Source of the DNA: a bacterium
Lineage (GTDB): Bacteria; Actinomycetota; Thermoleophilia; Solirubrobacterales; Solirubrobacteraceae
Length of the DNA: 64,000 bases
Assembly (NCBI GenBank): GCA_021323635.1
Contig: JAJPKQ010000027.1
Coordinates: 9,563-73,562, forward strand
Direction: 5' to 3'
Numbering within the stretch: position 1 is the first letter of the stretch; each line of letters opens with the position of its first letter. The translations under genes were made by a program, and so were the position numbers. Below the pieces are notes generated by a model. It had not been told where the DNA came from, made no database searches, and saw only the letters and a program-made list of their open reading frames with translations. Shown here piece after piece: positions 272-53,815 of this stretch.

Positions 272-278
272 GGTCGAG

Positions 279-4600: not shown

Positions 4601-4639
4601 CCCAAAGAGCCCGCTCCCAGCTCCAGAGGGAGCGTCACG

Positions 4640-5173
4640 GTGAGCCTCGGCGTCCTCTACGGGGTCCTGCACGACCTCGCCTTCTCGGTCTACATCGGCG
4701 GGCTGGTGTATGCGGAGATCGTGCTGCCGCCCGCGGCCAACGCGATCGCGCCCGCGCAGGGGATGGTGGTGCGCCGCAAGGCGGGCGACCTGCAGATGAT
4801 CGCCGCCTGGAGCGCGCTGTTCCTGATCCTGATCACAGGCATCCTGCGCCTGGGCCACATGGGCATGCTCGCCTTTCCGGGCACATTCTTCCTGAAGCGC
4901 GAAGTTGCTGAAACCTCCTTCGGCCAGACGATCTTCACGATGTTCGGCCTTTGGTGCGTACTCGTGGCGATCGGCGTCGTGATGACGTTCGTGCTGCGAC
5001 CGCGCCTGGCGGGGAAGATCGACCCGACGCTCTCCGCGGCTGAGCGCGAGGCCAAGCAGCGCCAGATGATGAGCGCCGCGCGCTGGCTCTCGATCCTGCT
5101 GCGACTCGATCTCGCAGTGGCCGTGACCGCAGCGATCATGGGCGCCTCCCTGGCATACGGAGGGCTCGTGTGA
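4640..5173 (+). CDS. Four-helix membrane protein (CopD/DUF4149-like)
   Basis: Four hydrophobic segments; first helix LHDLAFSVYIGG resembles the H-x-L-A-x-x-x-W-x-GG start of CopD-like proteins. Confidence 0.55.
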   Translation: MSLGVLYGVLHDLAFSVYIGGLVYAEIVLPPAANAIAPAQGMVVRRKAGDLQMIAAWSALFLILITGILRLGHMGMLAFPGTFFLKREVAETSFGQTIFTMFGLWCVLVAIGVVMTFVLRPRLAGKIDPTLSAAEREAKQRQMMSAARWLSILLRLDLAVAVTAAIMGASLAYGGLV

Positions 5174-7212: not shown

Positions 7213-7219
7213 AGGACAA

Positions 7220-9678: not shown

Positions 9679-9703
9679 CTTCGGCTCTGGCAGGATCGCT
9701 GCG

Positions 9704-10984: not shown

Positions 10985-11628
10985 CCGTCACGATCAGGCT
11001 CTTTGCAATCCTGCGCGAGCGCGCAGGCGCCGGCTCGATCGAGCTGGCGCTGCCCGAGGGCGCGACCGTCGCGACGGCGCTTGAGGCGCTGCGCCGCGAG
11101 GGGCCGCTGGCGGGCGTGATCGACCGCCTGCCGGTGCAGATGGCAGTCAACCGCGAGTATGCGGACGGCTCGACGCCGCTGCACGCAAGCGATGAGCTGG
11201 CGCTGATTCCGCCGGTCAGCGGCGGCGCGCGGGCGCAGGGGGAGGAGAGGCGGGAGGGGCGGCTGCGCCGCGCGGTGCTCAGCGCCCAGCCGCTCTCGCT
11301 CGATCGCGCTGTGCGCGCGGTGGAAAGCCCCGCTGCGGGCGCGCTGGTCGTCTTCTGCGGCATGACACGCGATGTCCCGGCGCTCGAGTACGAGGCCTAT
11401 GCGGAGATGGCCGAGGAGCAGCTTGCGCAGATCGGCCGCGGCGTCGCCGAGCGCCACGGCCTGCAGGCGCTGGCGATCGAACATCGTCTGGGCAGGGTGC
11501 CGTTGAGCGAGCCCTCGGTCGTGATCGCCGCCTCCGCGGCGCACCGCGCGGAGGCTTTCGCGGGGGCGCGCGAAGCGATCGACCTGATCAAGGAGCTGGC
11601 GCCGATCTGGAAGCGGGAGGACGGTTGA
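10972..11628 (+). CDS. moaX: Fused molybdopterin synthase MoaD-MoaE (MoaX-type)
   Basis: MoaD part ([12 protein letters not shown]...AVNREY...LIPPVSGG) in frame with MoaE part (LEYEAY...HRLG...HRAEAF...PIWKRE). Confidence 0.9.
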
Positions 11629-12104
11629 GGCTGAGCCATCTCGATGAGGCCGGTCGCGCGCGGATGGTGGATGTGTCGGCGAAGGAGCCCACCGCGCGCC
11701 ACGCTCGCGCGCGTGCGCTGGTGCGCATGTCAAGCGCGACCGCCGCGCTGATCGCCTCCGGCAAGGCGCCCAAGGGTGCGGTGCTTCAGACCGCGCGCAT
11801 CGCGGGCATCCAGGCTGCCAAGCAGACCGGGACGCTGATCCCGCTCGCGCACCCGCTGGCGCTCACGCACGTCGACGTCGAGGCCGACGTTCACCCCGAG
11901 CAGGGCCTGGTCGAGCTCTGCAGCGATGTCCGCACGATCGGCCAGACGGGGGTGGAGATGGAGGCGATGACCGCCTGCGCGGTCGCCGCGCTGACCGTCT
12001 ATGACATGGTCAAGGGGGTCGAGCGGGGCGTCGTCATCGAGCAGATCGCGCTGCTTGAGAAGAGCGGCGGCAAGGAGGATTGGCGGCGTGGGGAGGGGGG
12101 CTGA
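11625..12104 (+). CDS. moaC: Cyclic pyranopterin monophosphate synthase MoaC
   Basis: [42 protein letters not shown]. Confidence 0.95.
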
Positions 12105-39303: not shown

Positions 39304-39909
39304 TCAATACGGCGGCTGCGCCGCCTGCCAGTCGCCGAGCACGCGGAAGGCATCCCAGAAGCGCTGCTTGGCCGAGCGCTCGTCCAGGCACTCATCGATG
39401 TTCGGGACAAACAGCGCGTCGATCATCGGCGTCAGCTCCTGAACGTGGCCCGGGGTCGCGGCAAGGGCGTGGCTGAGCGGGATCTGTAGGTCGTTCACGG
39501 TCGCCAGCGCCGGCTCTCCCATCAGCACGACGATCCTTGGCGAGATGATCGCGATCTCCTCGAGCAGGCGGCGCACGCAGGCAGGGTCGGCGAGCGTCGG
39601 GTCCTCCAGCGGGCACTTGACGCAGAGCGTCCCATAGACGGTCAGTGGATCGATCGCGAGGCGCTTGAAGGACTTCATCAGGGCGTTGCCCGAGCGGCCG
39701 TAGAAGGCGACGCCCTCTTCGATCTCCGAGGGCCTGGCGGAATGCTTGATCAGCATGATGTCCGCCTGCGGATGGCCGGAGCCGAGCACCGGCACCAGCG
39801 CCCCGCGCGGGCAGCCTGCGCAGGCGTGGATCTCGTGCGCGAGCGCGTTCAGCTCACGGATCGCGCGATCGAGGTAGCGCTCGCGGATCTCATCGTTGGT
39901 CTGCGGCAT
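39304..39909 (-). CDS. Uracil-DNA-glycosylase-superfamily (family 4-like) Fe-S protein with divergent active site
   Basis: CAGC...GSGHPQADIMLI...AFYGRSG...VKCP...C...IVVLMGEPA give the UDG4 architecture; GEAPG and HPS motifs are replaced. Confidence 0.75.
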   Translation of the reverse strand: MPQTNDEIRERYLDRAIRELNALAHEIHACAGCPRGALVPVLGSGHPQADIMLIKHSARPSEIEEGVAFYGRSGNALMKSFKRLAIDPLTVYGTLCVKCPLEDPTLADPACVRRLLEEIAIISPRIVVLMGEPALATVNDLQIPLSHALAATPGHVQELTPMIDALFVPNIDECLDERSAKQRFWDAFRVLGDWQAAQPPY

Positions 39910-39995: not shown

Positions 39996-41981
39996 TCAGC
40001 GCGCCTGCCGGCTCGCCTCGCGCAGCCGTCGCAGCTGCGGGCCGCCGGCGCGCGTCTGGATCAGCTTCAGCGCCTGCACGTAGAGGAGGCTCTTGGGGCT
40101 GGCGATGATCTCGGCTTCTGCGAGCGCGGAGAGGAACTGCTGCGGTCCCTCGAAGTCGGGCATGCGCACGCGCACCGACCCCAGCCCCTGGGGAACATGG
40201 GCGTCGGAGCCGGCCCCGGCGAGGATGCGGTACTTGGCGGCAAAGCGCGCCGCCTCCTCGTTGAAGGCGGAGATCGCCACGCGCGCGTTATAGACCTCGA
40301 TCGCGTCGATCTGCGCAAGCAGCGGCAGCAGATTGGCGTAGTCGGGAACGGGGTGCAGGCGATCGAAGGGGTGCGGGATGTAGACGATGCCGCCCTGCGC
40401 CTTGATCTGAGCGATCGTCTCGGCGAGGCTCAGGCCGCGCGGGATCCGCTCGCTCAGAAAGAGCCCGATCACCTCCCCTTCAGAGGCGGTCTTGACCTCC
40501 TCGCCGACGATCACCTTCACGCCGTAGCGCTCGCCGAGCTCGGCTGCGGCGAGCGCGCCCGAGATCTCGTTGTGGTCGGTCACGGCGATGGCGCCCAGGC
40601 CGCGCTCGCGTGCGGTCGAGAGCAGCACCTCGACGGGCGTTGCGCAGTCCGGGGAGTGGTCGGTGTGCATGTGCAGGTCGACGTCGATCGCCTTTGTGCG
40701 CGCCTGCGCGCGCAGGGGCACGGGCGGAGCGTGGCGGCGCGCGATCAGCTCTTCGTAGATCGCCTCGGTCTCCTGCGCTGCGCGCTGCCAGCTGTGCGCG
40801 GCGGCAAACGACTTTCCGGCCCGCGCGAGGCGCTCGCGCAGAGGCCGATCGCCGATCAGCCGCTGCAGCTGCGCAAGCAGCCCCGCGAGGTCGCCTGGCT
40901 CAAAGAGCAGCCCCCGCTCCCCCTCCCCCAGCAGCTCCTCGTGGAGAGGGACGCGGGAGGCGAGCACAGCGGCTCCTGAGCCGAGCGCTCGCAGCAGCCC
41001 GGGATGGTCCGGAGCGGCGCCGCTTGAGGCGAACACGGCGATGTCGGCGCCCTCGCAGAGCTCTTCGCGCTCGGTGGCCGGCACGCTTGTGAGGCGCACG
41101 CGCTCGCGCAGGGCACCGCGCAGCGTCGCGAGCGCACGCTCAGGGCGATCCTCGATGGTCGGCGTCGCGACGAGCGCCTGCCAGCGCAGGCGCTCGGGCA
41201 GGCGGCGCAGCGCGCGCAGATGGAGGCGCAGCGCGGCGCGCTCCTCGGCTGCGGCGTAGAGGATGCGCGTCGGGTCCGTCGCCTGCCCGCGGGCGTCGGC
41301 TGCCTGGCGAGCGGAGCCGGTCGCCAGCGGCCAGAGCGCCGAGGCGCTCTGTGGCACGCCCTGCTTGCCCTCAGAGCCGCGCAGGCTCCATCCGGGTGCG
41401 ACGATTTCGCAGCGCACGGCGAGCAGCTCTGCGGCGGCGGCAGCGGCCGCGGCAGAGGGGGCGCTTGCCGCATCGATGCGCCCGAAGAGGCTGATCGACT
41501 CGCCGATCCGCCGGCTGAGCTCGCGCAGCGGCGTGCCCGCGGCGAGGTGGAAGGTTGCGGTGTTGAGCGAGCGCGAGTGGCGCAGCGCCGCGCTTGCGGC
41601 ACCGGCCGGCAATGGGTCGTGGACGTGGAGGAGGTCGATGGCGACCGCTGCGAAGAGCTCCTCGAGCGCCCGGCCCTGCTCTATCGAAACCGTGGCGCCC
41701 GGGGCGCGCGGGCGCGAGGGCGCGCCGCTGCGCACAGCCTCTGCGATTGCGATGAAGCCCTCGCTGTCGGCCGCCTGGGCAAGCGTGGCGATCTCAGCGT
41801 GAGCACGCAGCGCGGCGCGGGTGGCGCGGACGCGATTGGCCGAGCGCGAAGGAGCGATCGCGACCGCCGTGTGTCCGCGCGCGCGCAGCGCCTCGGTCAG
41901 ACGCGCGATGTGCGCGTTGACCGGGTGCTCGCTCTCGATCGGGTACGGGCTGACGTGGGCGATGGCAAGGCGGCTCTCCAT
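39996..41981 (-). CDS. Fusion: PimA-like GT4 domain (degenerate) + PHP-family metallophosphoesterase
   Basis: N-terminal IAHVSPYP...L...GH...IAPS and LLHVHDP (GT-B fold); C-terminal PHP motifs DLHMHT, VTDHNE, GEEV, IPHPFD, AGSDAH. Start trimmed to MESRL (GATAAT upstream). Confidence 0.85.
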   Translation of the reverse strand: MESRLAIAHVSPYPIESEHPVNAHIARLTEALRARGHTAVAIAPSRSANRVRATRAALRAHAEIATLAQAADSEGFIAIAEAVRSGAPSRPRAPGATVSIEQGRALEELFAAVAIDLLHVHDPLPAGAASAALRHSRSLNTATFHLAAGTPLRELSRRIGESISLFGRIDAASAPSAAAAAAAAELLAVRCEIVAPGWSLRGSEGKQGVPQSASALWPLATGSARQAADARGQATDPTRILYAAAEERAALRLHLRALRRLPERLRWQALVATPTIEDRPERALATLRGALRERVRLTSVPATEREELCEGADIAVFASSGAAPDHPGLLRALGSGAAVLASRVPLHEELLGEGERGLLFEPGDLAGLLAQLQRLIGDRPLRERLARAGKSFAAAHSWQRAAQETEAIYEELIARRHAPPVPLRAQARTKAIDVDLHMHTDHSPDCATPVEVLLSTARERGLGAIAVTDHNEISGALAAAELGERYGVKVIVGEEVKTASEGEVIGLFLSERIPRGLSLAETIAQIKAQGGIVYIPHPFDRLHPVPDYANLLPLLAQIDAIEVYNARVAISAFNEEAARFAAKYRILAGAGSDAHVPQGLGSVRVRMPDFEGPQQFLSALAEAEIIASPKSLLYVQALKLIQTRAGGPQLRRLREASRQAR

Positions 41982-42524: not shown

Positions 42525-42923
42525 CTAGCTGAGCCTCAGCGCCCGCACGGAGGCGTGCTGCTCGGCCGCAGCGGCAAGCGCCGCGTCCTTCGTCGCCAGC
42601 GACTCTTGGAGGCTCTCGGCCAGCGCGAGGAAGAGCGCATCTGCGATCGTGAGGTTGTGGCGCAGCTGCCATGCGCGCTCGCGCAGCGAAAGCGAGGGGA
42701 AGAGCTCGATTGGGACATCTCCAAGGTCGGCTATCGCCCCGGCGAGACGCTGCTCCGGGAGCGTGCCGCGAAGCGCCTCGCGACGGAAGACCGCAAGGGT
42801 CTCGAAGACGATGAGGTCGGGAGCTGCAAGCTCGCCCTCGTCGTCGAACAGCCTCTGCACCTGGTCGGCGGCGCCGCCGCCAAGCAGGTAGTCGATCAGG
42901 GCTGAGGTATCAAGTACGGTCAC
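42525..42923 (-). CDS. vapC: VapC-family PIN-domain toxin
   Basis: TVLDTSA, APDLIVFE, NLTIADALFLALAE, LATKD acidic PIN tetrad. Confidence 0.92.
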   Translation of the reverse strand: MTVLDTSALIDYLLGGGAADQVQRLFDDEGELAAPDLIVFETLAVFRREALRGTLPEQRLAGAIADLGDVPIELFPSLSLRERAWQLRHNLTIADALFLALAESLQESLATKDAALAAAAEQHASVRALRLS

Positions 42924-43153
42924 TCGCCCCGCTCTCGCAGCAGGCGGACGACTTGCTCGCTTGGCTCTGGGGGCTGGAGGGCTCCTCGTGCCTGGATGCG
43001 CGCCTGCAGCTCCGATGGGGTCGGACGAGCTGCCGAGCGGGCAAGGAGGCCTCTGAGGTACTCGGAGAGCGAGAGCCCCGCCGCGGCCGCGCGCGCCTTG
43101 AGGGTGCGGTGCACCTCATCGGGCACGTCACGAACCTGGACCAAGACGCCCAT
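42920..43153 (-). CDS. FitA/VapB-like ribbon-helix-helix antitoxin
   Basis: VQVRDVPDEVHRTLKARAAAAGLSLSEYLR; 4-nt overlap with the vapC start. Confidence 0.88.
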   Translation of the reverse strand: MGVLVQVRDVPDEVHRTLKARAAAAGLSLSEYLRGLLARSAARPTPSELQARIQARGALQPPEPSEQVVRLLRERGE

Positions 43154-43237
43154 ACACCACAGCATCTTATCATGCGCTGTACATGCATTCTGGCGCGCGC
43201 GCCGCCGTTGGCGCGGGCCTGTGGCTGGCGATGGGGC

Positions 43238-44485
43238 TCAGGCCCGAGTCGCGCCGCGCGCTCGGCGCGGCGCCTTGGAGGGGCGTGCGGGCGCCTTCGC
43301 ACCGCGCGCGTAGCGGGCGATGAAGCGCTCGGTCTCCGCGCGCGCCTCGTTGTCGGGGCGCTGGTGCTTGGGCGACTTCATCAGGTAGGAGGAGGGACCG
43401 TCGAGCTGGCCGCCGACGCCGTGGTTCAAGGCGAGCTTGCAGCAGCGCACCGCATCGATCACGATCCCCGCGGAGTTGGGCGAGTCCCATACCTCGAGCT
43501 TGAGCTCGACGTTCAGGGGCACGTCGCCGAAGGCCTGGCCCTCGACGCGGATGTGCGCCCACTTGCGGTCGGTCAGCCAGGGCACGTAGTCGGAGGGGCC
43601 GATGTAGATGTCCTCCGCGGGCAGCTGCTCGTCCATGATCGAGGTGACCGCGTTGGTCTTCGAGATCTTCTTGGACTCAAGGCGCTCGCGCTCGAGCATG
43701 TTGTAGAAGTCCATGTTGCCGCCGACGTTCAGCTGCGAGGTGCGCACCATCTTCACGCCGCGGTCGGCGAAGAGCCGCGCGAGCGTCCTGTGCACGATCG
43801 TCGCCCCGACCTGCGACTTGATGTCATCGCCCACGATCGGCAGCCCTGCGCGGGCAAAGCGCCGCTCCCAGTACTCCTCGCGGGCGATGAACACGGGGAT
43901 GCAGTTGACAAAGCCGCAGCCGGCCTCGAGGATCTGCTCGACGTACCACTTGGTGGCCTGCTCGGAGCCGACTGGGAGGTAGGAGACGACCACATCGGTG
44001 CGCGTCTCCTTCAGGATCGAGACGATGTCGGCGGTCTCGCCCGGCGCCTTCGTGATCTTCTCCTTCAGGTACTTGCCGAGCCCGTCGTGGGTCATGCCGC
44101 GGTGCACCGGCACGCCGAGCTTCCTTGGCACCTTGGCAAAGCGGATAGTGTTGTTCTGCCCGGCCCAGATCGCCTGCCCGAGATCCTTGCCCACCTTCGC
44201 CCGGTCGATGTCGAAGGCGGCGGTGAAGACGATGTCGCGGACGTGGTAGCCGCCGAGGTCCACGTGCATCAGCCCGGGGACGCGCTCGGAGGGGTCGGCG
44301 CCAGCGTAGTAGTGGACGCCCTGGACGAACGCGGAGGCGCAGTTGCCGACGCCGATGATCGCCACCCGCACCTGCTCGCTCTGGTGGCGCGAGCGCCCGT
44401 TCTGCACCGCGGGCAGGTGCTGCAGCGGCTGCTGCACAGCGTGTGTGCCGTTGGCGGTCGCGTTGTCGAGGCTGCGCTCTGCCAT
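43238..44485 (-). CDS. ino1: myo-Inositol-1-phosphate synthase (actinobacterial type)
   Basis: [64 protein letters not shown]. Confidence 0.97.
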
Positions 44486-44517
44486 GGGCGCTCAGACTAC
44501 TCCAAAGGCGCTCATCG

Positions 44518-45294
44518 TCACGCGCCGGGGGAGGCTGCTTCGCGCAGCAGCTGGCGACGGACGTGGGCGATCCGCTGGCCGACGGTCAGCACGGCAAGCC
44601 CCGCCAGGACGTAGATCGCCGGTTCGAGCGCGCTGAAGTGCGCAAGCGAGGCGCCGCGCGCAAAGAGCAGGCCGATCGCGATGATCACGACGCGCAGCGG
44701 CCTGCTTGCCAGGCCGACCTTGCACTCCACGCCCAGCGCCTCCGCGCGGGCGCGGGTGTAGGAGACCATCAGCGAGGCAAGCACCGCGATCACGACGGCT
44801 GCGACAGCGCCCGATCGGCCTTCGGCGGCAAAGCGCGCGGCGACCGCTGCCAGCACGACCCCCTCCTCGATGCGGTCGAGCGTCGAGTCGAGGAAGGCGC
44901 CGAACGGCGTTCCCTTGCCGGACATGCGCGAGTAGGTGCCATCGAGCGTGTCCATGATCGAGCCGATGATGAAGGTGATCCCGGCAAGGAAGAAGAGCTG
45001 CTCGAGCACGAGCGCCGCCGCGGCCAGGTTGAGCGCCAGGCCGCTCAGCGAGATCGCGTTGGGGGTCAGTCGCGATTCGATCAGGCGCTCGCGCACGAGC
45101 GCCCGCGCAGGGGGGCGCTCCGCGGCGCTGCGGCCCCGCGCACGCAGCGAGCCTGCGGTGGCCCGTCCGCCTGCGCGCAGCCTGGCACCTGCACGCTCAT
45201 GCGAGCGCGCGCGACGCCGCTGTGTTCGGCGCGCCCTGGCGGTCGCCGTCCGGGAGGGAGTCGCGCCGCGGTCGGATGAGGGGGGACGATCCAT
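44518..45294 (-). CDS. pgsA: CDP-alcohol phosphatidyltransferase, probable phosphatidylinositol-phosphate synthase
   Basis: LTPNAIS, signature DTLDGTYSR...GAFLDSTLDRIEE, VSYTRARAEALG; adjacent to ino1. True start may lie downstream of 45294. Confidence 0.88.
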   Translation of the reverse strand: MDRPPSSDRGATPSRTATARARRTQRRRARSHERAGARLRAGGRATAGSLRARGRSAAERPPARALVRERLIESRLTPNAISLSGLALNLAAAALVLEQLFFLAGITFIIGSIMDTLDGTYSRMSGKGTPFGAFLDSTLDRIEEGVVLAAVAARFAAEGRSGAVAAVVIAVLASLMVSYTRARAEALGVECKVGLASRPLRVVIIAIGLLFARGASLAHFSALEPAIYVLAGLAVLTVGQRIAHVRRQLLREAASPGA

Positions 45295-45315
45295 GTGCGA
45301 ATGCCCAGTGCGACC

Positions 45316-46125
45316 TTAGCCGGTTGTGCTCGTCGCCGGGGTCAGTGGCTTGTAGAGCGTCTGCCAGGCGCGCTCCGCCCAGCCGGCGAGCAGACGCGCT
45401 AGCGCTGCGGTGATCACGCCAAGGATCGTATCGAGGATGAAGTGGTTGCCGGTCGCAATGATGACGAAGGCGATCAGCAGCGGGTAGAGGACCCAGAGCG
45501 CGCGCACGAGCAGCAGCTTCGTCTCTCGTGCCAGCGGCCAGCCGATGATCAGCGCAAAGGCGATATGCATCGAGGGGATCGCGGCATAGGGGTTGAAGAA
45601 GTCGGAGAAGAGGGCGCTGGACTGGGACATCTTCAGGCCCGTCACATCGGAGACCGAGTCGACGAAGCCCCACTCGGGAAGGAAGCGCGGCGGTGCCGTC
45701 GGATAGAGGTAGTAGCCGATCAGCGCCAGCCCCAGCGCTATCAGCAGGGTGTTGCGCACCGTGACGAAGACGGGGTTGCGGTAGAAGTAGATGAACAGAA
45801 GCGCAGCGACGGTGACGGTGAACTGCGCGTTTACGTACAACCAGCCGGCGATCGCCATCAGCGTGTGGGAGCCCGAGGCCCAGGTCTGGACGGCGGGCTC
45901 GACGAAGATGTGCACCGAGCGCTCGAGCGAGATCACTTCGCGCGCATGCTGGAATGCCGCGGTGCCGTCGTTCTCGACCACGCCGCGCACGACACGGTAG
46001 GCGACGTAGGCAAGGGCGAAGTAGCCGACCTGTCGCAGGAGATCGACGGGGCTGGCGGGAAAGCCCGGCCAGCGTATGCGCTTGAGCGGGGTGCGCACCC
46101 GCGGGAGCCTAGCGCAGGCCGCCAC
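45316..46125 (-). CDS. PAP2_3 / AUR1 (inositol-phosphoceramide-synthase-like) membrane phosphotransferase or phosphatase
   Basis: YPTAPPR, YAAIPSMH, ATGNHFILD catalytic His/His/Asp arrangement; about 6 TM helices. Confidence 0.82.
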   Translation of the reverse strand: MAACARLPRVRTPLKRIRWPGFPASPVDLLRQVGYFALAYVAYRVVRGVVENDGTAAFQHAREVISLERSVHIFVEPAVQTWASGSHTLMAIAGWLYVNAQFTVTVAALLFIYFYRNPVFVTVRNTLLIALGLALIGYYLYPTAPPRFLPEWGFVDSVSDVTGLKMSQSSALFSDFFNPYAAIPSMHIAFALIIGWPLARETKLLLVRALWVLYPLLIAFVIIATGNHFILDTILGVITAALARLLAGWAERAWQTLYKPLTPATSTTG

Positions 46126-47938
46126 CTGCGCCGCGCGCCCCCGGCGAGCGTGCAGTCGGCCCCCGGCAGCTGCGATGGCTGTCGCCCAGCAGCGCGCCGA
46201 GTGAGAAGCTGACCGTGATCCGCAGGGTGCCCGCGGCCGCCGCTTCGAGGATCGTCCAGTTGCCCGCCGCGCGAACGAGACATCCCGAGCCCTGCGCGAG
46301 CGTCCAGTAGCGCGAGAAGTGGAAGGCCAAGCGGTAGCGACCCGGATGCGGAGCGCTCACAAGCAGCGACTGCGGGCCGAGCTCAAGCAGCCGCGCCGGC
46401 GCCTGCACCAGCGGCGCCGCGTGCTCGACCGCGTAGAGGCGCCAGTCCCGGTTGCGCCAGAGCCGGTGCAGATAGGGCAGGCCGGCGCGGATCAGCCTGC
46501 CCTCGGGGCGCCCGGCGGAGTCCAGGCGCGCCTGCGGGAGGGCGACGTAGGAGACGGCGTTTTCTAAGAGCCAGCGCCGGTAGGCGGAGGCGCTCAGCTG
46601 CGGTCGGTAGAAGAGGGCGTTGTAGCGGGTGTCAAGCTGGCGCTCCCAGCCGCGCGCGAGCATCAGGCCGCCGCCGGGCAGGTAGGCAGCCTCCCAGTGC
46701 GCTCCGGTCATCGGGATCTCCACGCGCGTCGGCCTGCCGCGGCTGAGGCGCTGTAGCTCTGCGATCAGCGGCGCATAGAAGGTGCGCTTCACGGTGCGAT
46801 CGCCGGCCAGGGCAAGCTGGTCGTCGATCGCGGTTGCAAGCTGCCAGTAGAGCAGGAGCGGGGCGATCGCCGCGGCGATCGCAATCCAGGCCCGCGGCCT
46901 CAAGCTGCGCGCGATCGCAGCATTCCAGAGGCAGCCGAGCAGGAGCGGGGCACCGAAGAGCGCGCCCACGCGCACCGCGTTGCCGCCGAAGGGGCTCTCG
47001 ATCAGAAACGATCCGACCAGCAGGATCGCGTAGAGGAGCGCGCCGATGCGGATTGTGCGGTGCAGCCAGTGCGGCAGGTGCCCGTGGGGCAGCAGCATCG
47101 CGACCGCGAGGCCTGCTGCGAGCTCAGGCCAGAAGGCGCCCGCCACAAAGGGCTCATAGCCGCCTTCGGGGAAGGCGAGCACGAGCGCGGCGATCGGCGC
47201 CAGCGAGGCTGAGATCAGCAGCAGGGCGACCGCGAGCGCGTGGCGCGGGCACTCATCTGATCGCCTTGCGAGCCGGCGCGGTGATCGCGTGAAGGAGGTC
47301 AGGCGCCCCGCGAGCACACTGAGCGCCAGCGCGCCGCCGGCAAGCGCCAAGAAAACGCCCGCGACCGGGCTTGCGGTCGCAGAGAGCACGCAGAGCGCGC
47401 CGGCGGCCATGAGGGAGAGCAGCCGCGCTGGGCCTGCGGGCGGCGCATGGGCGAGCGCAACCAGCGCGAGCAGCCCGATCGCGCTGCCGACATCAAAGGG
47501 GACGCGACCGGAGGGCAGCTCGGCGCAGAAGCCGAAGGCAAAGCTGAGCGCGGCGGCGCGTGCGGCGCCGGCTGTTGAGAAGGCGCGCAGCGCAAGCAGC
47601 GCAAAGCCGCCCGCCGCGACCACGGCGGAGAGCGCAAGCAGCATGCGCAGGCCGATCGCCGCGCCCAGTGCCGGCACGATGATCGAGTAGGCAAGCAGGT
47701 AGTGGCCGGCATACCAGCCCGTGTCATAAAGCAGGAGGCCGTAGCGGGAGAAGAGGTCGGCGCGGTAGGTGGCGGCGGCGAGGTCGCCCGATGGCGGCGA
47801 GACCGCCAGATAGATGGCGGCGAGCAGGATCGCAAGCGCGAGCGCGGCTGCAACCGTCAGCCGCGGGGAGCCGATTGCGCGCGGGCTTGGGGGCGGCAGG
47901 GTTGCGGAGGCTGGCTCGGCTGTCTGCAGATGTGACAT
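46109..47938 (-). CDS. Polytopic membrane protein, possible GT-C-type glycosyltransferase
   Basis: 10 or more hydrophobic segments, acidic first loop SGDLAAATYRADLF followed by WYAGH, and a soluble C-terminal domain (RVEIP, ARGWERQLD). Fold assignment is an inference. Confidence 0.5.
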   Translation of the reverse strand: MSHLQTAEPASATLPPPSPRAIGSPRLTVAAALALAILLAAIYLAVSPPSGDLAAATYRADLFSRYGLLLYDTGWYAGHYLLAYSIIVPALGAAIGLRMLLALSAVVAAGGFALLALRAFSTAGAARAAALSFAFGFCAELPSGRVPFDVGSAIGLLALVALAHAPPAGPARLLSLMAAGALCVLSATASPVAGVFLALAGGALALSVLAGRLTSFTRSPRRLARRSDECPRHALAVALLLISASLAPIAALVLAFPEGGYEPFVAGAFWPELAAGLAVAMLLPHGHLPHWLHRTIRIGALLYAILLVGSFLIESPFGGNAVRVGALFGAPLLLGCLWNAAIARSLRPRAWIAIAAAIAPLLLYWQLATAIDDQLALAGDRTVKRTFYAPLIAELQRLSRGRPTRVEIPMTGAHWEAAYLPGGGLMLARGWERQLDTRYNALFYRPQLSASAYRRWLLENAVSYVALPQARLDSAGRPEGRLIRAGLPYLHRLWRNRDWRLYAVEHAAPLVQAPARLLELGPQSLLVSAPHPGRYRLAFHFSRYWTLAQGSGCLVRAAGNWTILEAAAAGTLRITVSFSLGALLGDSHRSCRGPTARSPGARGAGGGLR

Positions 47939-48124
47939 CGGGCGCCCGATTATCGTGCAGCAAGGGGATGTGCTCGCTGGTGGGATTGCGCGGCTCGGGC
48001 AGGGGGCGATCACGCGTCGGCGTAGCGCCGCGCGAGCCTTGTGGCGGTTTGCAGCTCAGCAGTATGGCCCGCCACGAACCTCCGGGTGGCGTGGCGACAC
48101 AGTCAATGTGAAAGGATCGCAACG

Positions 48125-49864
48125 ATGGGATTGAGGCTGCCGGCAGGTGCCCGGGAGGTCTTCTTCGGCGCTGCGCTCGGCCTGGGTGTTGGTGCGGCCT
48201 ATCTGGCACCGGACGCAGTTGCGAGCGGACATTAGCCGAGGCAAGTTGGAGCGCAGATGCTGACCGTCCGTGCAGGCGCCGTGGCGGCGCCGCTCCCCGA
48301 TGGGAAGATACGCATCGTGGGTGGTGAGACGAAAACCAAGAAAAGTCAAACGTCTACAAAGAGCGCCGAAGTCTACAACCGTTCCACCAAGAGCTTTGAA
48401 GCGCACAGCGCACAGGCGACAGCATCGCGCGATTACGCAGCCGGCGCCGTGCTGCCGAGCGGCGAGGCGCTGATCGTGGCCGGCTACGACACTGAATCCA
48501 AGCAGCAGCTGAAGAGCGCCGAAGCGTAAAACCGGTCAGCGCGCGCTTTGAAACGCTAGCGAGCGAAGCGCTGGCAGCAAGGGCGTATGCGACTGCAGCG
48601 GCGCCGGGGCGGCAAGGCTCTGAATGCCGACGGGCATGGCAGCAACGGCAAGGAGGAAGCGAATCTGGGGACGGCAGAGTTCTACAACCCGAGCACCGAT
48701 GCGTTTGAACACATCGCCGGCGAACCGCAGGTAGTAGGCGGCGAGAATCCCGCAGCGGCCTTGATCCGCGAAGAAAAGTGCTGATCGCAGGCGGCTGCGG
48801 TCAAAGCTATCGCAGTAGCGCTGATCGTTACAACGCCAAGACCGGCAGCTTGAGACGCCCGCCGGCATCGGCAAACTGACCGGGCGTCGGTATGGCGCCT
48901 GGTCGCTTGCCTCCGAAGCCGGCGAAGCGTTCATCGGCTCCGGCTACAGCTCTTCTTATCTGCGCAGCGTCGATTCAACTGACGGCAAGACGCTCACGCT
49001 CTCGAGGGCTGCACGGCGGCCGCTTGAAGAGCGCTGGGACGCGGTGGTGGCGCCGCTGTCAAAGAGCCCGTGGCTGATCGCAGGTGGTATCGCGCAGTAA
49101 ACGGAATTGTCGGCATTGCCGAGGAAATCGCGGCGGTCGTTCCAATGGCCTCGATGATCGGCGGCGGCTTCGGAGCGGTGGGCGTCGGCGAAAGCGCTGG
49201 TGCGCGCACGATCACCGTCGGCAACAGAGGGCAAGGTCAACTGAGGATCAGAGGCGTGCTGCTCAGTGGGGCCGATGCCGCTGACTTCAAGCTCGACGGA
49301 GGTCTCTGCGTCGGGCTCTCGGTTGCCGCGGGCGACAGCTGCGTGCTCACGGTCAGCTCCGCGCCTGCCACCACAGGAGCTGAGACCGCCACGCTGAGGC
49401 TTGAAGACAACGAGCGGTCGCGTGCCTCGATCACGCTGACCGGCAGCGGCTGTGCGCCGGGCTCTGCTGCGGGAGCGCTGCGCCTGCGGGGAGCAGCGGG
49501 GCCGACCGGCGCCGCGGGCCCAACGGGCGCCACCGGGCCTGCCGGGAAGGTCGGGCTCCTCACCTGCTCGGTTGGCGTCAAGAAGGTCGGGCGGCATGGG
49601 CACGTAGGCAAGCTGCGCGGGCGCCACTGCACGACAAAGACGGTGAGCGGCACCGCGAAGCTCACCCTCACCGGGCCGCGGGTCGCTCTGCGTCATGGCG
49701 GTCATCTCTACACGCACGGCGAGGAGATCGCGCTCGGGCACGGTCGCAGCGAGCTGGTGCTTGCGCGCGGCGTAGCTCTGCAGCCCGGTCGCTTCACCCT
49801 GGTCTCGCGCATCCGCCGCCACGGCCGGCTCGTGCGCAGACGCATGCAGATAGAGATCCGGTGG
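48125..49864 (+). pseudogene. Decayed secreted kelch-repeat + Ig-like (choice-of-anchor D) + collagen-like protein
   Basis: Signal-peptide-like start with in-frame TAG 48233; kelch units (LPDGKIRIVGG...SAEVYN, LPSGEALIVAG...SAEA*, KVLIAGG) broken by stops and frameshifts; ITVGNRGQGQL...CVLTV...LTGSG; GxT collagen triplets; original stop apparently lost. Confidence 0.8.
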
Positions 49865-50101
49865 GCGCCTCACCTCGGCCCAAGCGCCGGGGCCCTGAGC
49901 GGGCCCCGGCGCGCCCGCGGCAGCGCGCCTCCCAGCCCTTGCCCTCAGGGTCGACGCTGCTCTCCTGAGCGAAGCCTGCAGAAAAGATCAGGGCACGCTC
50001 CCCGATGCGAGCACGGATGCCATCGGCGAGGATCGGCCAAGTTGCAAGTAACCGATCCAAGGAGGGCTTCGTTGCACCCGATCTCCGGTCTTCTCCGTCA
50101 G

Positions 50102-50773
50102 ATGCGCCGACGCTTCACATTCGCCAACGTCGTGGCCGTGATCGCGCTGCTGTTCTCGATGAGTGGCGCTGCGATCGCCGCACGCCATTACCTGATCACC
50201 TCAACCAGGCAGATCAGCCCGAAGGTGCTGCGCGAGCTGCGCGGTCGCAACGGCCAGCGCGGAGCTACTGGTCAAAGCGGAGCAGCGGGCCCGCAGGGCG
50301 CCACAGGCTCTCAGGGAGCGGCCGGCCCGCAGGGCGTGACCGGGCCGCAGGGGCCTGCAGGGCCGGGGCTGATGGCTTACGCCTCCAATAAGGGAGGCTG
50401 TGCGCTCGAAAACGAACTAGGCAATTTCTGCTACCCGTCATCCCCTTCCTCGGGCTCGTTTACGGCAAGCGCCAACGGCACCTGTCTCGTGAGCGCGAGT
50501 GCCCAGATCGAAGAAGTCTCGGGTGTCACGTCCAACGGACCGTTCTTCCGGATCGCGATCAAGGAAGGCGCCACGGAGAAGAACGACGGGCTCTATGGCC
50601 ACTACTTCGAGGGCTCCGCCGGCGTGGAATCCATCGACCTTTCGCGCACGATGCAGGTCGCGGTCAGCGCGGGAAACACCTATGAGTTCGGTGCCTACTT
50701 CGGTGCTCCCACAGGACCCTGGCATGGCAAGTTCGCCGACTACCTGGTCACCTACACCTGCTTTGCGACATAG
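50102..50773 (+). CDS. Secreted collagen-like (Gly-X-Y) protein
   Basis: MRRRFTFANVVAVIALLFSMSGAAIAA leader, about 13 Gly-X-Y triplets, beta-rich C-terminal domain. Confidence 0.78.
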   Translation: MRRRFTFANVVAVIALLFSMSGAAIAARHYLITSTRQISPKVLRELRGRNGQRGATGQSGAAGPQGATGSQGAAGPQGVTGPQGPAGPGLMAYASNKGGCALENELGNFCYPSSPSSGSFTASANGTCLVSASAQIEEVSGVTSNGPFFRIAIKEGATEKNDGLYGHYFEGSAGVESIDLSRTMQVAVSAGNTYEFGAYFGAPTGPWHGKFADYLVTYTCFAT

Positions 50774-50839
50774 CGCCGCCGGACGCGCATAGGGCGCCAC
50801 CGGACGACGCCTTTTCGGGCGTGGTGGCACGCTTAGGCG

Positions 50840-53815
50840 GTGCACACCACCGTCGGCGAGGAGCGACTATACGACCGCGAGGGCGAGCTCACAAGCATCG
50901 GCGAGGTCTTTGATCAGGCGCGCGGCGGGAGCGGCGGCGCGCTGCTCATAGAAGGCGCTCCCGGTCTGGGCAAGAGCGCCCTGCTGCGCGCCGCCCGGCG
51001 AGGTGCGGGCGGGCTGCAGGTCCTGCACGGTGCCGGCGAGGAGCTTGAGCGCGGCTTCGCGTTCGGGGTCGCGCGCGACCTTTTCGCGCGGGCACTGCAG
51101 GCGCTCGATCAGAGAGCGCGCAGGCGCGCGCTGACCGGACCGGCTGGGCACGCCTGCGCTGCACTCGGGATTGGGACGGGGACGCGCTCAGTTGAAGGCA
51201 GGGTTGCTGGCCGGGCAGCTCGCGGCGCGCCGGCGTCCGCCTGGCCCGGCGCCGCAAGCGGCGCCGAGGGCGGCGGCCGCATCCTGCACGGCCTCTACTG
51301 CCTGCTCGTGAACCTCGCCGTGCGGGCGCCGCTCGCGCTTGTCCTCGACGATCTGCACTGGGTCGATCACTCCAGCCTGCACCTGCTTGCCTACGTGATC
51401 CGGCGGCTGGAGGGCCTGCCGGTGGCGATCGTGATGGCAACCCGTCCGCCGCGGTCCGGGCGTTTCGATGGCCTGGTGCAGCGGCTTGCCGCCGAGCGAT
51501 CCGTGCTCGTGCACACGCTCACGCCGCTTGGCGCCGAGGCGGTCGGGAGCTATCTGGAAGACCGCCTGGGAGGCCCAGTCGATGTGACCTTTGCCGAGAC
51601 GGCCCGCAGCCTCAGCGGCGGCGTCCCCTACCTGCTCGAGCATCTGGCGCCGGAGATCGAGCGTCGCGGTCTCCAAACAACCGAAGCCGAGATCGAGAAG
51701 CTGCTCATGCTCTCGCCGCAATCGCTCAGCCGCGTGATCAACGCGCGCCTTGCGGAGCTGCCGACAACTGCAAGATCGCTGGCATCTGCCGCGGCGATTC
51801 TGGGCTCGCGAGCGCGCCTGGACAGCTGCATCGCGCTCGCTCACCTGAGCGCGCCGGATGCGTTGCAGGCAATCGACGAGCTTGCGGCGCTTGCGGTCGC
51901 GCACATCGAGGGCGAGAAGATCGCGATCTCGCACCCGCTGCTGCGGCGTGCGCTGCTCGCCGACCTTGCGCCAGGGACGGCTGTGCGCATGCATCTTGAA
52001 GCGGCTGAGATGCTCGATCGGGAAAACGCCGAGCCGGCGGTGGTCGCAGCGCATCTGCTTGCCGCGCCGGTCCCGCAGGGCTCCCCGGCGGCGCGCAGCT
52101 GGGCGCTCGATCTGCTGCAGCGAGAGGCCGAGCGAGCGCTGGCGCAGGGCGCTCCGGCAGATGCCGCGCGGCTGCTGCGGCGCGCGCTGATCGAGGCGCA
52201 GGAGGCAAGCCAGAGAGCGACGCTGCTCTTCAAGCTCGGGGCCGCCGAGATCAGGGCTGGCGAGGCGGATGCCATCCGCCATCTGCGCGTTGCGGCGCGC
52301 TCGCTCCTCGATCCGGGCAAGCGCGCCGGCGCCCACCTCGAGCTCGGGCTCGCGCTGATCGCGCGCGGCGATCCAAATGGGGCGGTCGCGGTGCTGGACC
52401 AGGCGCTCGTCCGACTGGGCGAGGGGCCCGCCGCTGATCGGCGGCTGCGCGTTCGCCTGGAGGCGGAGCTGCTTGCGGCGGCGCGCATAGGGGGCGCCAA
52501 ACACGCCGACATCCTGCAGCGACTGCAGCGACTGGGCATGCCGGAGGGTGAAGGTCGCGAGCAGCGGCTGCTGCTCGGTGTGGTCGCGTTCGAGGCGCTG
52601 ATCGCCGGAGGGATGCAGGTCGGCGCCCTGCCACTGCAATCGGCGGACGCGGTCATTGCGCTTGCGCGACGGGCGCTCAGCGGCGATGCGTCGATCGAGC
52701 ACTCCGCCCACTCGCCGCCCTTGAACCTCGCCGCCTACGCGGCGGCAGCAAGCGACGATCTTGCATCCGCGCTCTGCTTTGCCCGCCAGACGCTGCAGCG
52801 CGCAGAGAAGAGCGGCAGCGTGCTCGGCTTCGCGATCGCCTCCTGCTGGCGCTCGCACTTTGCGCTGCGCGCCGGTGACCTGCGCCTGGCCGAGGAGGAT
52901 GCGCGCGCCTGCCTGGCAAGCGAAGATGCTCATCATTGGCGTCTCGGCCGTCCGGCTGCGGCCGCAAACCTGATCGAAGCGCTGCTGGGCGAGGGCAGGG
53001 TGGCCGAGGCTGAGCAGCTGAGCCTGAAGTTTGTGCCCGGCGAGCTCGCCGGCGCCGGGCTGATCGGCCTTGCACTGCGCGTCGCGATCGGCCGTGTGCA
53101 CCTACTCTGCGGACGCTATCGCGAGGCGGTCGCCGTGCTGGAGGCCTGCGGCGCGGAGTTCGATGGTATCGGGGCCAGAAACCCCGCGCTCAGCCGCTGG
53201 CGATCGCTGTGCGCGCTTGCCCTGGCGGGGGAGGAGAAGCACGAGCAGGCACGCGCGCTGGCTGCAGAGGAGATGGGGCTCGCACGCGCGTTTGGCTCCG
53301 AGAGCGCTTTTGGCTGCGCGCTGGTCACCTCGGCGCTGCTATCGGACTCGCGCCGCGAGCGCCGGGCGCTGCTTGAGGAGGCGGAGGCGGTGCTTGGCGG
53401 TTGCGGTGCGCGCCTGGACTGGGCGCACGCGCTGCTTGAGCTGGGCGCGCTGCATCGCCGCGAGGGCAGGCGCAGCACAGGGGTAGAGCTGCTGCAGAAG
53501 GCGCTCGACCTCGCCGAGCGGCTGGGGGCGGGCATGCTCAGAGAGCGTGCGCGGGCGGAGCTTGCAAGTGCTGGGCTCAGACCCAGACGGGCGCTGCTGA
53601 GCGGGCCGGAGTCGCTGACGGGCGCAGAGCTTCGCGTGGCTGAGGCGGCGGCCGCCGGGATGACAAATCGGGAGATCGCGCAGCGCCTGTATCTGTCGGT
53701 GAAGACCGTTGAAACCCACCTGCGCCATGCCTACCAGAAGCTTGACATCAGCTCGCGCAAGCAGCTGCCCAGCGTGCTCACGGTCGAGCCGGCAGGGCAG
53801 CGCGCGCCGCGCTGA
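50840..53815 (+). CDS. LAL / MalT-like AAA-ATPase LuxR regulator
   Basis: Walker A GAPGLGKS, Walker B VLDDLHW, TPR-like middle, C-terminal LTGAELRVA...TNREIAQRLYLSVKTVETHL. Confidence 0.92.
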   Translation: MHTTVGEERLYDREGELTSIGEVFDQARGGSGGALLIEGAPGLGKSALLRAARRGAGGLQVLHGAGEELERGFAFGVARDLFARALQALDQRARRRALTGPAGHACAALGIGTGTRSVEGRVAGRAARGAPASAWPGAASGAEGGGRILHGLYCLLVNLAVRAPLALVLDDLHWVDHSSLHLLAYVIRRLEGLPVAIVMATRPPRSGRFDGLVQRLAAERSVLVHTLTPLGAEAVGSYLEDRLGGPVDVTFAETARSLSGGVPYLLEHLAPEIERRGLQTTEAEIEKLLMLSPQSLSRVINARLAELPTTARSLASAAAILGSRARLDSCIALAHLSAPDALQAIDELAALAVAHIEGEKIAISHPLLRRALLADLAPGTAVRMHLEAAEMLDRENAEPAVVAAHLLAAPVPQGSPAARSWALDLLQREAERALAQGAPADAARLLRRALIEAQEASQRATLLFKLGAAEIRAGEADAIRHLRVAARSLLDPGKRAGAHLELGLALIARGDPNGAVAVLDQALVRLGEGPAADRRLRVRLEAELLAAARIGGAKHADILQRLQRLGMPEGEGREQRLLLGVVAFEALIAGGMQVGALPLQSADAVIALARRALSGDASIEHSAHSPPLNLAAYAAAASDDLASALCFARQTLQRAEKSGSVLGFAIASCWRSHFALRAGDLRLAEEDARACLASEDAHHWRLGRPAAAANLIEALLGEGRVAEAEQLSLKFVPGELAGAGLIGLALRVAIGRVHLLCGRYREAVAVLEACGAEFDGIGARNPALSRWRSLCALALAGEEKHEQARALAAEEMGLARAFGSESAFGCALVTSALLSDSRRERRALLEEAEAVLGGCGARLDWAHALLELGALHRREGRRSTGVELLQKALDLAERLGAGMLRERARAELASAGLRPRRALLSGPESLTGAELRVAEAAAAGMTNREIAQRLYLSVKTVETHLRHAYQKLDISSRKQLPSVLTVEPAGQRAPR

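Follow-up and report, generated by a model that had tools for sequence, protein, structure and literature searches.

A putative phosphatidylinositol operon of Solirubrobacterales with a candidate outer-face inositol-phosphate transferase and a GT-C-like partner

Within the window, the whole 64,000-nucleotide stretch of actinobacterial DNA analyzed here, a minus-strand run of four genes encodes a myo-inositol-3-phosphate synthase (Ino1/MIPS), a PIP-synthase-type enzyme (PIPS), an Aur1-like PAP2_3 protein and a GT-C-like membrane protein (Table 1). The original prediction had read four adjacent genes here as an inositol-phospholipid cluster; the arrangement is as described, and the reading is supported. 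Packing is operon-like, with the PAP2_3 start overlapping the stop of the upstream GT-C-like gene by 17 nt, subsequent spacers of 21 nt and 32 nt, and a GC3 of 0.86-0.95 in the four frames. Of 81 related loci, 80 have the genes in this same arrangement (GT-C-like, PAP2_3, PIPS, MIPS), far above chance expectation, and the remaining one is cut off by a contig edge. These genes are only the upstream part of a block that continues with a GT4::PHP fusion gene and a UDG-fold gene: ino1 is followed by GT4::PHP in 74 of the 81 Solirubrobacterales loci, and 74-80 of them preserve the order of all five genes. PAP2_3-PIPS-MIPS-GT4::PHP is also retained in a second order of Thermoleophilia, and the invariant core across the class, including genomes without a detected PAP2_3, is PIPS-MIPS-GT4::PHP. 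Here ino1 and GT4::PHP are separated by a VapBC pair, an insertion outside the pathway; relatives that were inspected have the GT4::PHP match directly after ino1, with no space for the pair. The dnaK operon is close by and the surroundings belong to the conserved core, so that synteny may partly represent inherited order rather than functional coupling.

Table 1. Features of the block and the matches on which their assignments are based
Feature	Position	Strand	Evidence
UDG-superfamily protein	39304..39909	-	PF03167 46 bits
Degenerate PimA-like GT4 + intact COG0613-type PHP phosphoesterase	39996..41981	-	Pfam GT4 + PHP + PHP_C
VapC PIN toxin (toxin-antitoxin pair)	42525..42923	-	PIN domain 53 bits
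VapB (toxin-antitoxin pair)	42920..43165	-	
Myo-inositol-3-phosphate synthase (Ino1/MIPS)	43238..44485	-	PF01658 126 bits; TIGR03450 530 bits (below the model cut-off of 638)
PIP-synthase-type CDP-alcohol phosphatidyltransferase	44518..45294	-	PF01066 57 bits
PAP2_3 (Aur1/Ipt1-family) six-TM protein	45316..46125	-	PF14378 134 bits (cut-off 27)
609-aa polytopic membrane protein, GT-C-like fold	46109..47938	-	AF2 model + Foldseek

Homology to characterized enzymes gives good support to the first two steps, in which Ino1 would make inositol-3-phosphate and PIP synthase would combine it with CDP-diacylglycerol to form PIP. Ino1 is 80-91% identical in relatives, and neither MshA nor MshC was found in the genome, which argues that ino1 does not feed mycothiol. 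The best NCBIfam matches of the PIPS, NF040950 (archaetidylinositol-phosphate synthase, 136 bits) and NF045883 (PIP synthase, 128 bits), both fall below cut-off; PIP synthases of mycobacteria or Renibacterium, among them 6wm5, 6h53 and 5d91, make up its best five PDB matches. These alignments begin at residues 61-69, the first ~60 residues of the ORF are Arg-rich and without counterpart in homologs, and the true start may lie near 45110. The protein carries the motif DTLDGTYSR-x8-GAFLDSTLD and is the only PIPS-type enzyme among the three CDP-OH transferases of the genome. The mycobacterial PI/PIM pathway uses Ino1, PgsA1 (PIP synthase), a PIP phosphatase and PimA, followed by PimE and other GT-C mannosyltransferases. 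Shared with it here are the PI chemistry (inositol-3-phosphate plus CDP-diacylglycerol to PIP to PI), the nearest solved transferase structures, a PimA-like GT4 domain and the expectation that GT-C enzymes carry out later, outer-face steps. In contrast to mycobacteria, ino1 lies inside the operon, the PimA-like domain is dead and fused to PHP while an intact PimA is encoded elsewhere in the genome, fused to an MprF-type flippase-like domain, no PatA-like acyltransferase domain occurs among the genes of this block, and the operon additionally holds PAP2_3 and an unclassified GT-C-like gene; we know of no counterpart of these two in the mycobacterial pgsA1 operon.

Conversion of PIP to PI would fall to the GT4::PHP fusion. 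Its family profile matches PimA (2gej) at 118 bits, compared to 52 bits for the next GT4 and 43 bits for MshA, and by sequence the GT4 half is PimA-derived, specifically PimA-like. Every sugar-donor residue is lost (HP at the GG loop, a deletion of R196 and Ala for K202) and the Glu residues of EX7E are replaced by Ala and Arg; this half is predicted to be catalytically dead. The PHP half keeps invariant metal-site His, Asp and Glu residues, has 3e0f, 7ug9 and 2yb1 as its best PDB matches, and shares PHP + PHP_C and all metal ligands with COG0613 phosphoesterases (Cv1693-type 3',5'-bisphosphonucleotide phosphatase; TrpH/RNase AM). The substrates of such enzymes bear two phosphates, one of them a ring-bound phosphomonoester that is cleaved off, and by analogy would formally resemble the PIP head group. 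Unlike them, the PHP domain here shares its polypeptide with a dead PimA domain and is encoded in a PI operon; to our knowledge, no lipid substrate has been shown for the COG0613 family. A PgpA-type PIP phosphatase is found nowhere in the genome, and in mycobacteria the PIP phosphatase is still unidentified (PMC6506517). Four genomes (G045, G060, G075 and G180) retain PIPS-MIPS-GT4::PHP, while PAP2_3 was detected neither near the operon nor among the best eight first-look candidates scored per genome, the basis of some PAP2_3 absences; because the core is kept in such genomes, the PHP domain appears a better candidate for the PIP (3-)phosphatase than the PAP2 protein. The dead PimA domain would anchor the PHP domain at the cytoplasmic leaflet, where it would remove the 3-phosphate from PIP to yield PI. 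Against this step, stand-alone PHP orthologs in other families are not adjacent to PIPS, and in genome G130 the dead GT4 stands without PHP, no PHP ortholog exists and PAP2_3 is fused to an intact PimA, a pattern that could mean that PAP2_3 is able to replace PHP.

The PAP2 protein had been described as AUR1-like with a preserved His/His/Asp set, and family, triad and fold agree on this. H187, H228 and D232 are invariant in 32 homologs, as are the motifs PTAPPRF-PEWGF, NPYAA-PSMH and T-NHF--D; its top two Foldseek matches are IPC synthases (9vj4 and Aur1, 9ivc), followed by LpxE and PgpB, with the TM-scores in this analysis being modest (0.3-0.5). Its PF01569 score (24.6 bits) lies below the cut-off of 27.2, and it lacks the KX6RP Lys (C1) and the Arg before the C3 His of PAP2 phosphatases. 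Like fungal Aur1 (IPC synthase) and Ipt1 (mannosyl-IPC inositolphosphotransferase), its closest solved folds, it belongs to PF14378 and combines a six-helix catalytic core and a predicted non-cytoplasmic active site with a triad spaced similarly to H255/H294/D298 of Aur1 (PMC12122681). It differs from Aur1 in that the N-terminal helix pair is missing, which leaves six helices, and in the lack of a Kei1 partner; structure-based identity to the fungal proteins is only ~14-16%, and the enzyme is paired with a GT-C-like protein, not with a Golgi GT32 mannosyltransferase. Positive-inside counting on the model helices puts the triad outside, and in G130 the fusion to GT4 means that the C-terminus of PAP2_3 must be cytoplasmic. 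The active site is thus modeled as outward-facing, and we predict that PAP2_3 is an outer-face phospho-head-group (inositol-phosphate) transferase.

The 609-aa partner has no sequence match in Pfam, NCBIfam or the PDB and no profile relation to GT87, and represents an undescribed family. It comprises ~12 transmembrane helices and a C-terminal beta-rich domain, with Asp52, in the first loop after TM1, invariant in 48 homologs. As originally predicted, its AF2 model (pLDDT 80, pTM 0.82) matches only GT-C glycosyltransferases when searched with Foldseek: the best 12 PDB hits (probability >=0.99, TM 0.3-0.45) are all GT-C enzymes (AftA, AglB, STT3, DPY19, ArnT), and PMT and EmbB rank just below. 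Gene overlap and co-occurrence tie it functionally to PAP2_3, as had been supposed. In the Thermoleophilia sample, 16 genomes have both genes, one has PAP2_3 only and seven have neither (Fisher p = 2e-5); across the sampled actinobacterial phylum, 28/28 genomes that carry the GT-C-like family also possess PAP2_3, compared with a 47/301 base rate. PAP2_3 and the GT-C-like protein are an accessory pair, kept or lost together. Another actinobacterial family has a GT87::PAP2_3 fusion in a large (9.2 Mb) genome, and the genome analyzed here carries a second GT87 + PAP2_3 cluster on its contig C5.

The best explanation, which taken as a whole we hold to be evenly poised, is that the four genes make up the upstream portion of a Solirubrobacterales phosphatidylinositol operon that includes a PHP step and carries an outer-face pair of inositol-phosphate transferase and glycosyltransferase. 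The accessory pair would act at the outer face of the membrane: PAP2_3 would take inositol-phosphate from PI (or mannosyl-PI), releasing diacylglycerol, and pass the head group to a hydroxyl acceptor; the GT-C-like enzyme would then add a sugar from a polyprenyl-phosphate donor. Within this explanation, the acceptor is tentatively (i) a PI-mannoside, glycolipid or lipoglycan, or, with a smaller share, (ii) a ceramide from an Spt-like/GNAT pair. A lipid or glycopolymer that bears inositol-phosphate and is further glycosylated, as first suggested, survives as the best reading and remains an unproven proposal. PI and PIM have been reported from Solirubrobacter (PMC10722151); the literature searched holds no report of an inositol-phosphate-capped lipid or inositol sphingolipid from Thermoleophilia. 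The three uncharacterized operon partners of the PI genes offer testable candidates for a missing pathway phosphatase in a soil actinobacterium, and the accessory pair for a new step of inositol-phosphate transfer and glycosylation outside the membrane.

If the acceptor were ceramide, PAP2_3 would be a true inositol-phosphorylceramide synthase, in keeping with its top Foldseek matches, and the GT-C-like enzyme would glycosylate IPC to MIPC-/GIPC-like sphingolipids in a Gram-positive bacterium, a sub-case that we consider unlikely. The window lacks a serine palmitoyltransferase, as had been noted, but the recommended search of the genome found an Spt-like oxoamine synthase gene elsewhere (C36:6367-7704), which keeps this acceptor in play. 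Serine palmitoyltransferase models score this protein at 383 and 371 bits, ahead of Kbl (335) and BioF (327), although all under their cut-offs of 640 and 500 bits; its gene and that of a GNAT acyltransferase, a possible bCerS homolog, are a conserved divergent pair beside MlaE/MlaF/MmpL-like lipid-transport genes. An ortholog (62-72% identity) occurs in 11/11 other sampled Solirubrobacterales with PAP2_3 and is absent only from G045, which also lacks the GT-C-like gene and a detected PAP2_3. Families f7 and f4 of Thermoleophilia, however, have PAP2_3 and the GT-C-like gene without the Spt-like ortholog, PAP2_3 lies in the PIPS operon in f7, and large f26 genomes hold 2-4 PAP2_3 copies with the GT-C-like family in a comparison that covers these two only. 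The suggested resemblance to Bacteroides bears on the same point. MIPS, PIP synthase and an Aur1-homologous PAP2_3 are indeed clustered as in BT_1522-BT_1526 of Bacteroides thetaiotaomicron (Heaver et al. 2022, PMC9246714), but the likeness is loose: the PgpA-type phosphatase (BT_1525) has no equivalent here, Bacteroides-specific models score far below cut-off (34 against 480 bits for PI-dihydroceramide synthase with PAP2_3, and 90 against 350), a GT-C-like partner and GT4::PHP fusion are present, and the Spt-like/GNAT pair does no more than suggest a sphingolipid supply.

The alternative, also raised originally, that PAP2_3 itself converts PIP to PI, much as PgpB acts on phosphatidylglycerol phosphate, with PHP doing something else, is disfavored and in our view improbable. 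The PAP2 superfamily does include phosphatidylglycerol phosphate phosphatases, PAP2_3 directly precedes PIPS in a second order as well as in three families of this one, and in G130, where PHP is missing, its fusion partner PimA is the next enzyme after the phosphatase step. Yet the operon core persists in the four genomes without a detected PAP2_3; PIP synthesis and PI mannosylation take place on the inner face, opposite to the predicted outer-face active site; PAP2_3 lacks the C1 Lys and C3 Arg with which PAP2 phosphatases act on phosphomonoesters, the PF01569 score is subthreshold and the closest folds are transferases; and the operon also encodes a PHP phosphoesterase, cytoplasmic and joined to a dead PimA.

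Least probable, and quite doubtful, is that PAP2_3 is a carrier-lipid or general lipid-phosphate phosphatase (acting, e.g., on polyprenyl diphosphate) that serves the GT-C-like enzyme and adjoins PIPS incidentally: PAP2 enzymes such as PgpB and BcrC do recycle undecaprenyl diphosphate on the outer face, the coupling to GT-C proteins is strong (co-occurrence, gene overlap, GT87::PAP2_3 fusions) and in family f37 a PAP2_3 homolog is divergent from an operon ending in BacA, but the cationic C1 and C3 residues are again lacking, and GT87 enzymes use polyprenyl monophosphate sugars, which would leave no diphosphate to recycle. Moreover, in f2 PAP2_3 adjoins PIPS, whereas in most sampled genomes the GT-C-like gene is ~13 kb distant or on a different contig (adjacent in G269), which indicates that the tightest link of PAP2_3 is to PI synthesis.

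At the downstream end of the block, the UDG-superfamily gene always follows the GT4::PHP gene (74/81 Solirubrobacterales loci); it occurs in other orders of Thermoleophilia at 45-70% identity and is kept in G130 even though PHP is lost.

Gene calls and domain matches bear out the four-gene minus-strand cluster of the original prediction, and its order (a GT-C-like protein, a PAP2_3 protein, a PIP-synthase-type CDP-alcohol transferase called PIPS here, and MIPS) recurs far beyond chance, in 80 of 81 related loci, the 80 loci taken from public genomes all being from Solirubrobacterales or Solirubrobacteraceae MAGs. The GT-C-like and PAP2_3 genes overlap by 17 nt, the spacers on either side of PIPS measure 21 and 32 nt, and third-position G+C in the four genes (0.86-0.95) is that usual for true genes in the host genome (2.6 Mb, 70% G+C, 97.5% complete; the window is C26:9563-73562). 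The block is longer than predicted: a PimA-like GT4 domain fused to a PHP phosphoesterase (GT4::PHP) and then a UDG-superfamily gene follow 3' of ino1 on the same strand in 74 of the 81 loci, and the whole is situated close to the dnaK operon, within conserved core sequence, a caveat on the conservation of its gene order. The pathway itself is known, being the synthesis of phosphatidylinositol (PI) via phosphatidylinositol phosphate (PIP), but here takes a new arrangement with three uncharacterised, strongly conserved partners, for which no description was found in the literature searched.

Features of the extended inositol phospholipid block (positions in the window)
Feature	Position	Strand	Remark
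UDG-superfamily gene	39304-39909	-	
GT4::PHP fusion	39996-41981	-	
VapB/VapC (PIN) toxin-antitoxin pair	42525-43165	-	between ino1 and GT4::PHP
MIPS (Ino1)	43238-44485	-	
CDP-alcohol phosphatidyltransferase (PIPS)	44518-45294	-	
PAP2_3 protein	45316-46125	-	
609-aa polytopic GT-C-like protein	46109-47938	-	

The toxin-antitoxin pair interrupts an otherwise contiguous operon, ino1 and GT4::PHP adjoining directly in the relatives inspected. The UDG-superfamily gene, which may belong to the operon, also stands 3' of GT4::PHP in other orders of the class and is retained in one genome (G130) despite loss of the PHP domain. Upstream of the operon lies a 2.8-kb stretch (48013-50840) of lower G+C (0.67) in which every frame departs from normal codon bias; the longest open reading frame there (49070-50773, plus strand) matches a collagen-like repeat. 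A scan for promoters and terminators between 39 and 51 kb gave none above shuffle expectation.

In PIPS, the CDP-alcohol motif D-x2-DG-x2-AR-x8-G-x3-D-x3-D is present as DTLDGTYSR-MSGKGTPF-GAFLDSTLD, with Ser replacing Ala before Arg; each of the top five PDB matches is an actinobacterial PIP synthase (71-78 bits), and the best NCBIfam models are those for archaetidylinositol-phosphate synthase and PIP synthase, both below cut-off (128 bits against 170 for the latter, NF045883). The gene adjoins ino1, and the two further CDP-alcohol transferases of the genome are of the PgsA and ClsA types, so that the PIPS product is probably the organism's only PIP synthase. The first ~60 residues of its open reading frame (45110-45294, minus strand) are Arg-rich, of low complexity and without a match in homologues or PDB structures; translation probably begins further downstream than annotated, or else the segment is a lineage-specific disordered tail. 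PI and PIM have been reported in Solirubrobacter (PMC10722151). Neither MshA nor MshC scores above cut-off anywhere in the genome, which argues that the inositol phosphate does not feed mycothiol; we read the two MshC-like matches as the two parts of one CysRS-type gene broken at contig ends.

By family and fold, the PAP2_3 protein would belong with the inositol phosphate transferases. It scores 134 bits on PF14378 (PAP2_3, Aur1/Ipt1 type; cut-off 27) and only 24.6 bits on PF01569 (PgpB/LPP type; cut-off 27.2), and its closest Foldseek matches are an IPC synthase (9vj4) and Aur1 (9ivc), both at probability 1.0 and a modest TM-score of 0.45-0.50 on a model with pLDDT of only 73, followed by the LpxE and PgpB folds. 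The His/His/Asp set noted in the original prediction is real: H187, H228 and D232 do not vary among 32 homologues and correspond to H255, H294 and D298, the catalytic triad defined for Aur1 (PMC12122681). The protein departs from all three PAP2 phosphatase motifs (KX6RP, PSGH and SRX5HX3D): its C1 reads Y-x6-RF, without the Lys, its C2 PSMH, and its C3 I/V-x5-H-x3-D, without the Arg. Counted on the model helices, 13 Lys/Arg residues fall in the N-terminus, even-numbered loops and C-terminus versus four in the long odd-numbered loops, which predicts that the triad lies on the outer face, its position, to our knowledge, in all PAP2 enzymes. A cytoplasmic C-terminus is independently required by a PAP2_3::GT4 fusion in G130. 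No published role of Aur1-family enzymes in Actinobacteria was found in the literature searched. The predicted likeness to the Bacteroides route holds only loosely: MIPS, PIPS and an Aur1-like protein are clustered here too, whereas, relative to the Bacteroides BT_1522-1526 cluster, the PgpA-family PIP phosphatase is absent from the host genome, and the PAP2_3 protein, whose 34 bits on the model of the Bacteroides PI-dihydroceramide synthase (NF052609, BT_1522 type) fall far short of the 480 required, is not an orthologue of that enzyme.

The gene overlapping that for PAP2_3 encodes a 609-aa protein that has no match in Pfam or NCBIfam, including the described GT-C sequence families (GT87, PMT_2 and others), and none in a profile search of PDB sequences. 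Its AF2 model (pLDDT 80) supports the predicted GT-C fold: the 12 best Foldseek matches in the PDB are all GT-C enzymes (probability >=0.99, E-values 1e-3 to 6e-2, modest TM-scores of 0.3-0.45), with AftA, AglB, STT3, DPY19 and ArnT at the top and PMT and EmbB just below. All 48 sequences compared keep D52, which lies within PPSGDLAAATYR directly behind TM1, and the first loop, which carries it, would face outside. A distant GT87 relationship was rejected (hhalign against the GT87 protein of the genome, probability 0.1). The protein founds a GT-C-like family for which there is no Pfam model.

Together, PAP2_3 and the GT-C-like protein make up a module. Within the class sample, 16 genomes have both, one has PAP2_3 only and seven have neither (Fisher p = 2e-5), PAP2_3 absences resting on the best 8 first-look candidates scored per genome; of 301 Actinomycetota genomes, the 28 that have the GT-C-like family carry PAP2_3 without exception, against a base rate of 47/301, with GT-C-like absences in this survey called from the best 4 candidates. 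(In the searches by genome for the GT-C-like gene, the Spt-like orthologue discussed below and the operon neighbourhood, all candidates were scored.) These 28 genomes span eight families, among them f26, whose large genomes (7-10 Mb) have many copies of the module and encode GT87::PAP2_3 fusion proteins. In another family, f2, PAP2_3 keeps its place next to PIPS, and in most sampled genomes the GT-C-like gene is ~13 kb off or on another contig, which makes PI the closest association of PAP2_3. Gene order links the Aur1-like enzyme to PI synthesis, and overlap, co-occurrence and fusions link it to GT-C proteins, so that a new extracytoplasmic head-group transfer step probably exists in Actinomycetota.

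Several loci show related associations. One GT87::PAP2_3 fusion of 704 aa is encoded in a 9.2-Mb actinobacterial genome (L102, G054:C1:2767000-2786700), and open frames of ~700 aa at other PAP2_3 matches in the same genus suggest more such fusions. In an f26 genome (G253:C12:211353-213630), a gene for a GT-C-like homologue converges, at a distance of 68 bp, on a PAP2_3 gene with an open frame of 693 aa that is probably a GT87 fusion. The host itself has a second PAP2_3 paralogue, its best PF14378 match, outside the window on contig C5 (11370-17400), where the cluster also encodes a GT87 GT-C protein, an MGDG-synthase-type glycosyltransferase, a membrane protein and a polysaccharide deacetylase.

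We posit that, at the outer leaflet, the Aur1-like enzyme would take the phospho-inositol head group from PI or flipped mannosyl-PI, release diacylglycerol and hand the head group to an acceptor hydroxyl, and that the GT-C-like enzyme would then glycosylate the product using a polyprenyl-phosphate sugar as donor. The acceptor could be (i) a non-ceramide glycolipid or lipoglycan, a possible but tentative assignment, or (ii) a ceramide, which we regard as unlikely. The genome search for spt called for by the original prediction returned one Spt-like gene, outside the window on contig C36, whose oxoamine synthase product has its highest scores on models of serine palmitoyltransferase, though short of the cut-offs (383 bits against 640). 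An orthologue is present in every sampled Solirubrobacterales genome save G045 (a congener of G143), and neither the GT-C-like gene nor PAP2_3 was found in G045, a distribution that keeps ceramide among the candidates. Against ceramide stand two further families of the class, which carry the module but no orthologue of the Spt-like gene, and the many module copies of the f26 genomes. The C36 locus (228-8952), where the Spt-like gene (6367-7704, minus strand) is divergent from one for a 388-aa GNAT acyltransferase, is a candidate ceramide-type lipid locus, and its arrangement is conserved in five of six relatives; the GNAT, which may be a bCerS homologue, has no NCBIfam or PDB match. Beside the pair, two MlaE-like permeases, an MlaF-like ATPase and an MmpL-like transporter can be read from the sequences without Pfam confirmation. 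That the Solirubrobacterales module places PI-derived inositol phosphate on an Spt-like/GNAT ceramide and then glycosylates it, as one version of a two-enzyme outer-face module across Actinomycetota, is a speculative and rather improbable proposal; if true, it would bring GIPC- or MIPC-like inositol sphingolipids, so far known to us from eukaryotes, Bacteroidota and myxobacteria, to Gram-positive bacteria.

The GT4 half of the third partner, GT4::PHP, is PimA-derived: the profile of the fusion family matches PimA 2gej at 118 bits, the next GT4 at 52 and MshA at 43. The donor-binding residues are not kept (the GG loop is HP, R196 is deleted, K202 and E274 are Ala, and E282 of the EX7E motif is Arg), whereas two intact PimA-like proteins aligned with it retain the GG loop, the Lys and EX7E, one of them, from contig C13, having Gln at the R196 position. 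An active-PimA reading was rejected on the mapped catalytic residues, and a mycothiol role, as MshA plus the missing MshA2 phosphatase, fails on the dead GT4, the lower MshA score and the lack of MshA and MshC above cut-off. Conservation within the fusion is highest in the PHP half, where all metal ligands are invariant. To judge from its residues, the C13 protein (9266-11647, minus strand; 793 aa, outside the window), in which a largely intact PimA-like GT4 is joined to an LPG_synthase_TM (MprF-type flippase-like) domain, is the working PimA of the genome and a candidate for a combined PI mannosyltransferase and PIM flippase.

PI anchors the mycobacterial PIM, LM and LAM glycolipids. The enzyme that converts PIP to PI is still unidentified in mycobacteria (PMC6506517); that of Bacteroides is a PgpA homologue (PMC9246714), a family (PF04608) without a match in the 97.5%-complete host genome. 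Our preferred candidate is the PHP domain, which we consider reasonably likely to be the PIP phosphatase, since a soluble phosphoesterase at the inner leaflet, anchored by the PimA-derived domain, suits the step better. PIPS, MIPS and GT4::PHP make up an invariant core across the class Thermoleophilia, one that is kept where PAP2_3 was not detected among the best 8 candidates scored per genome or near the operon, in G045 (same family), G060, G075 and G180. The persistence of this core argues against the alternative offered by the original prediction, that the PAP2 protein is itself the PIP phosphatase, as do the missing C1 Lys and C3 Arg and the predicted outer-face triad, and we consider it distinctly unlikely. 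The main evidence against the PHP assignment comes from G130, a Thermoleophilia genome with a dead GT4 lacking PHP and no PHP orthologue, where PAP2_3 is fused to an intact PimA-like GT4 (649 aa; L099, G130:C1:467500-487200). The dead-PimA::PHP fusion is accordingly a concrete candidate for the enzyme that makes PI from PIP, with PAP2_3 the clear alternative.

Stand-alone PHP orthologues beside PIPS were sought in other actinobacterial families and none was found; those of family f37 belong to a TldD-PmbA-PHP-BacA operon. At two loci from two genera of an actinobacterial family other than that of the host (L125:7966-12452 and L126:7401-12382), a PHP orthologue of 45-46% identity ends a TldD-PmbA-PHP operon that is divergent from a PAP2_3 homologue, and in L126 BacA lies directly 3'.
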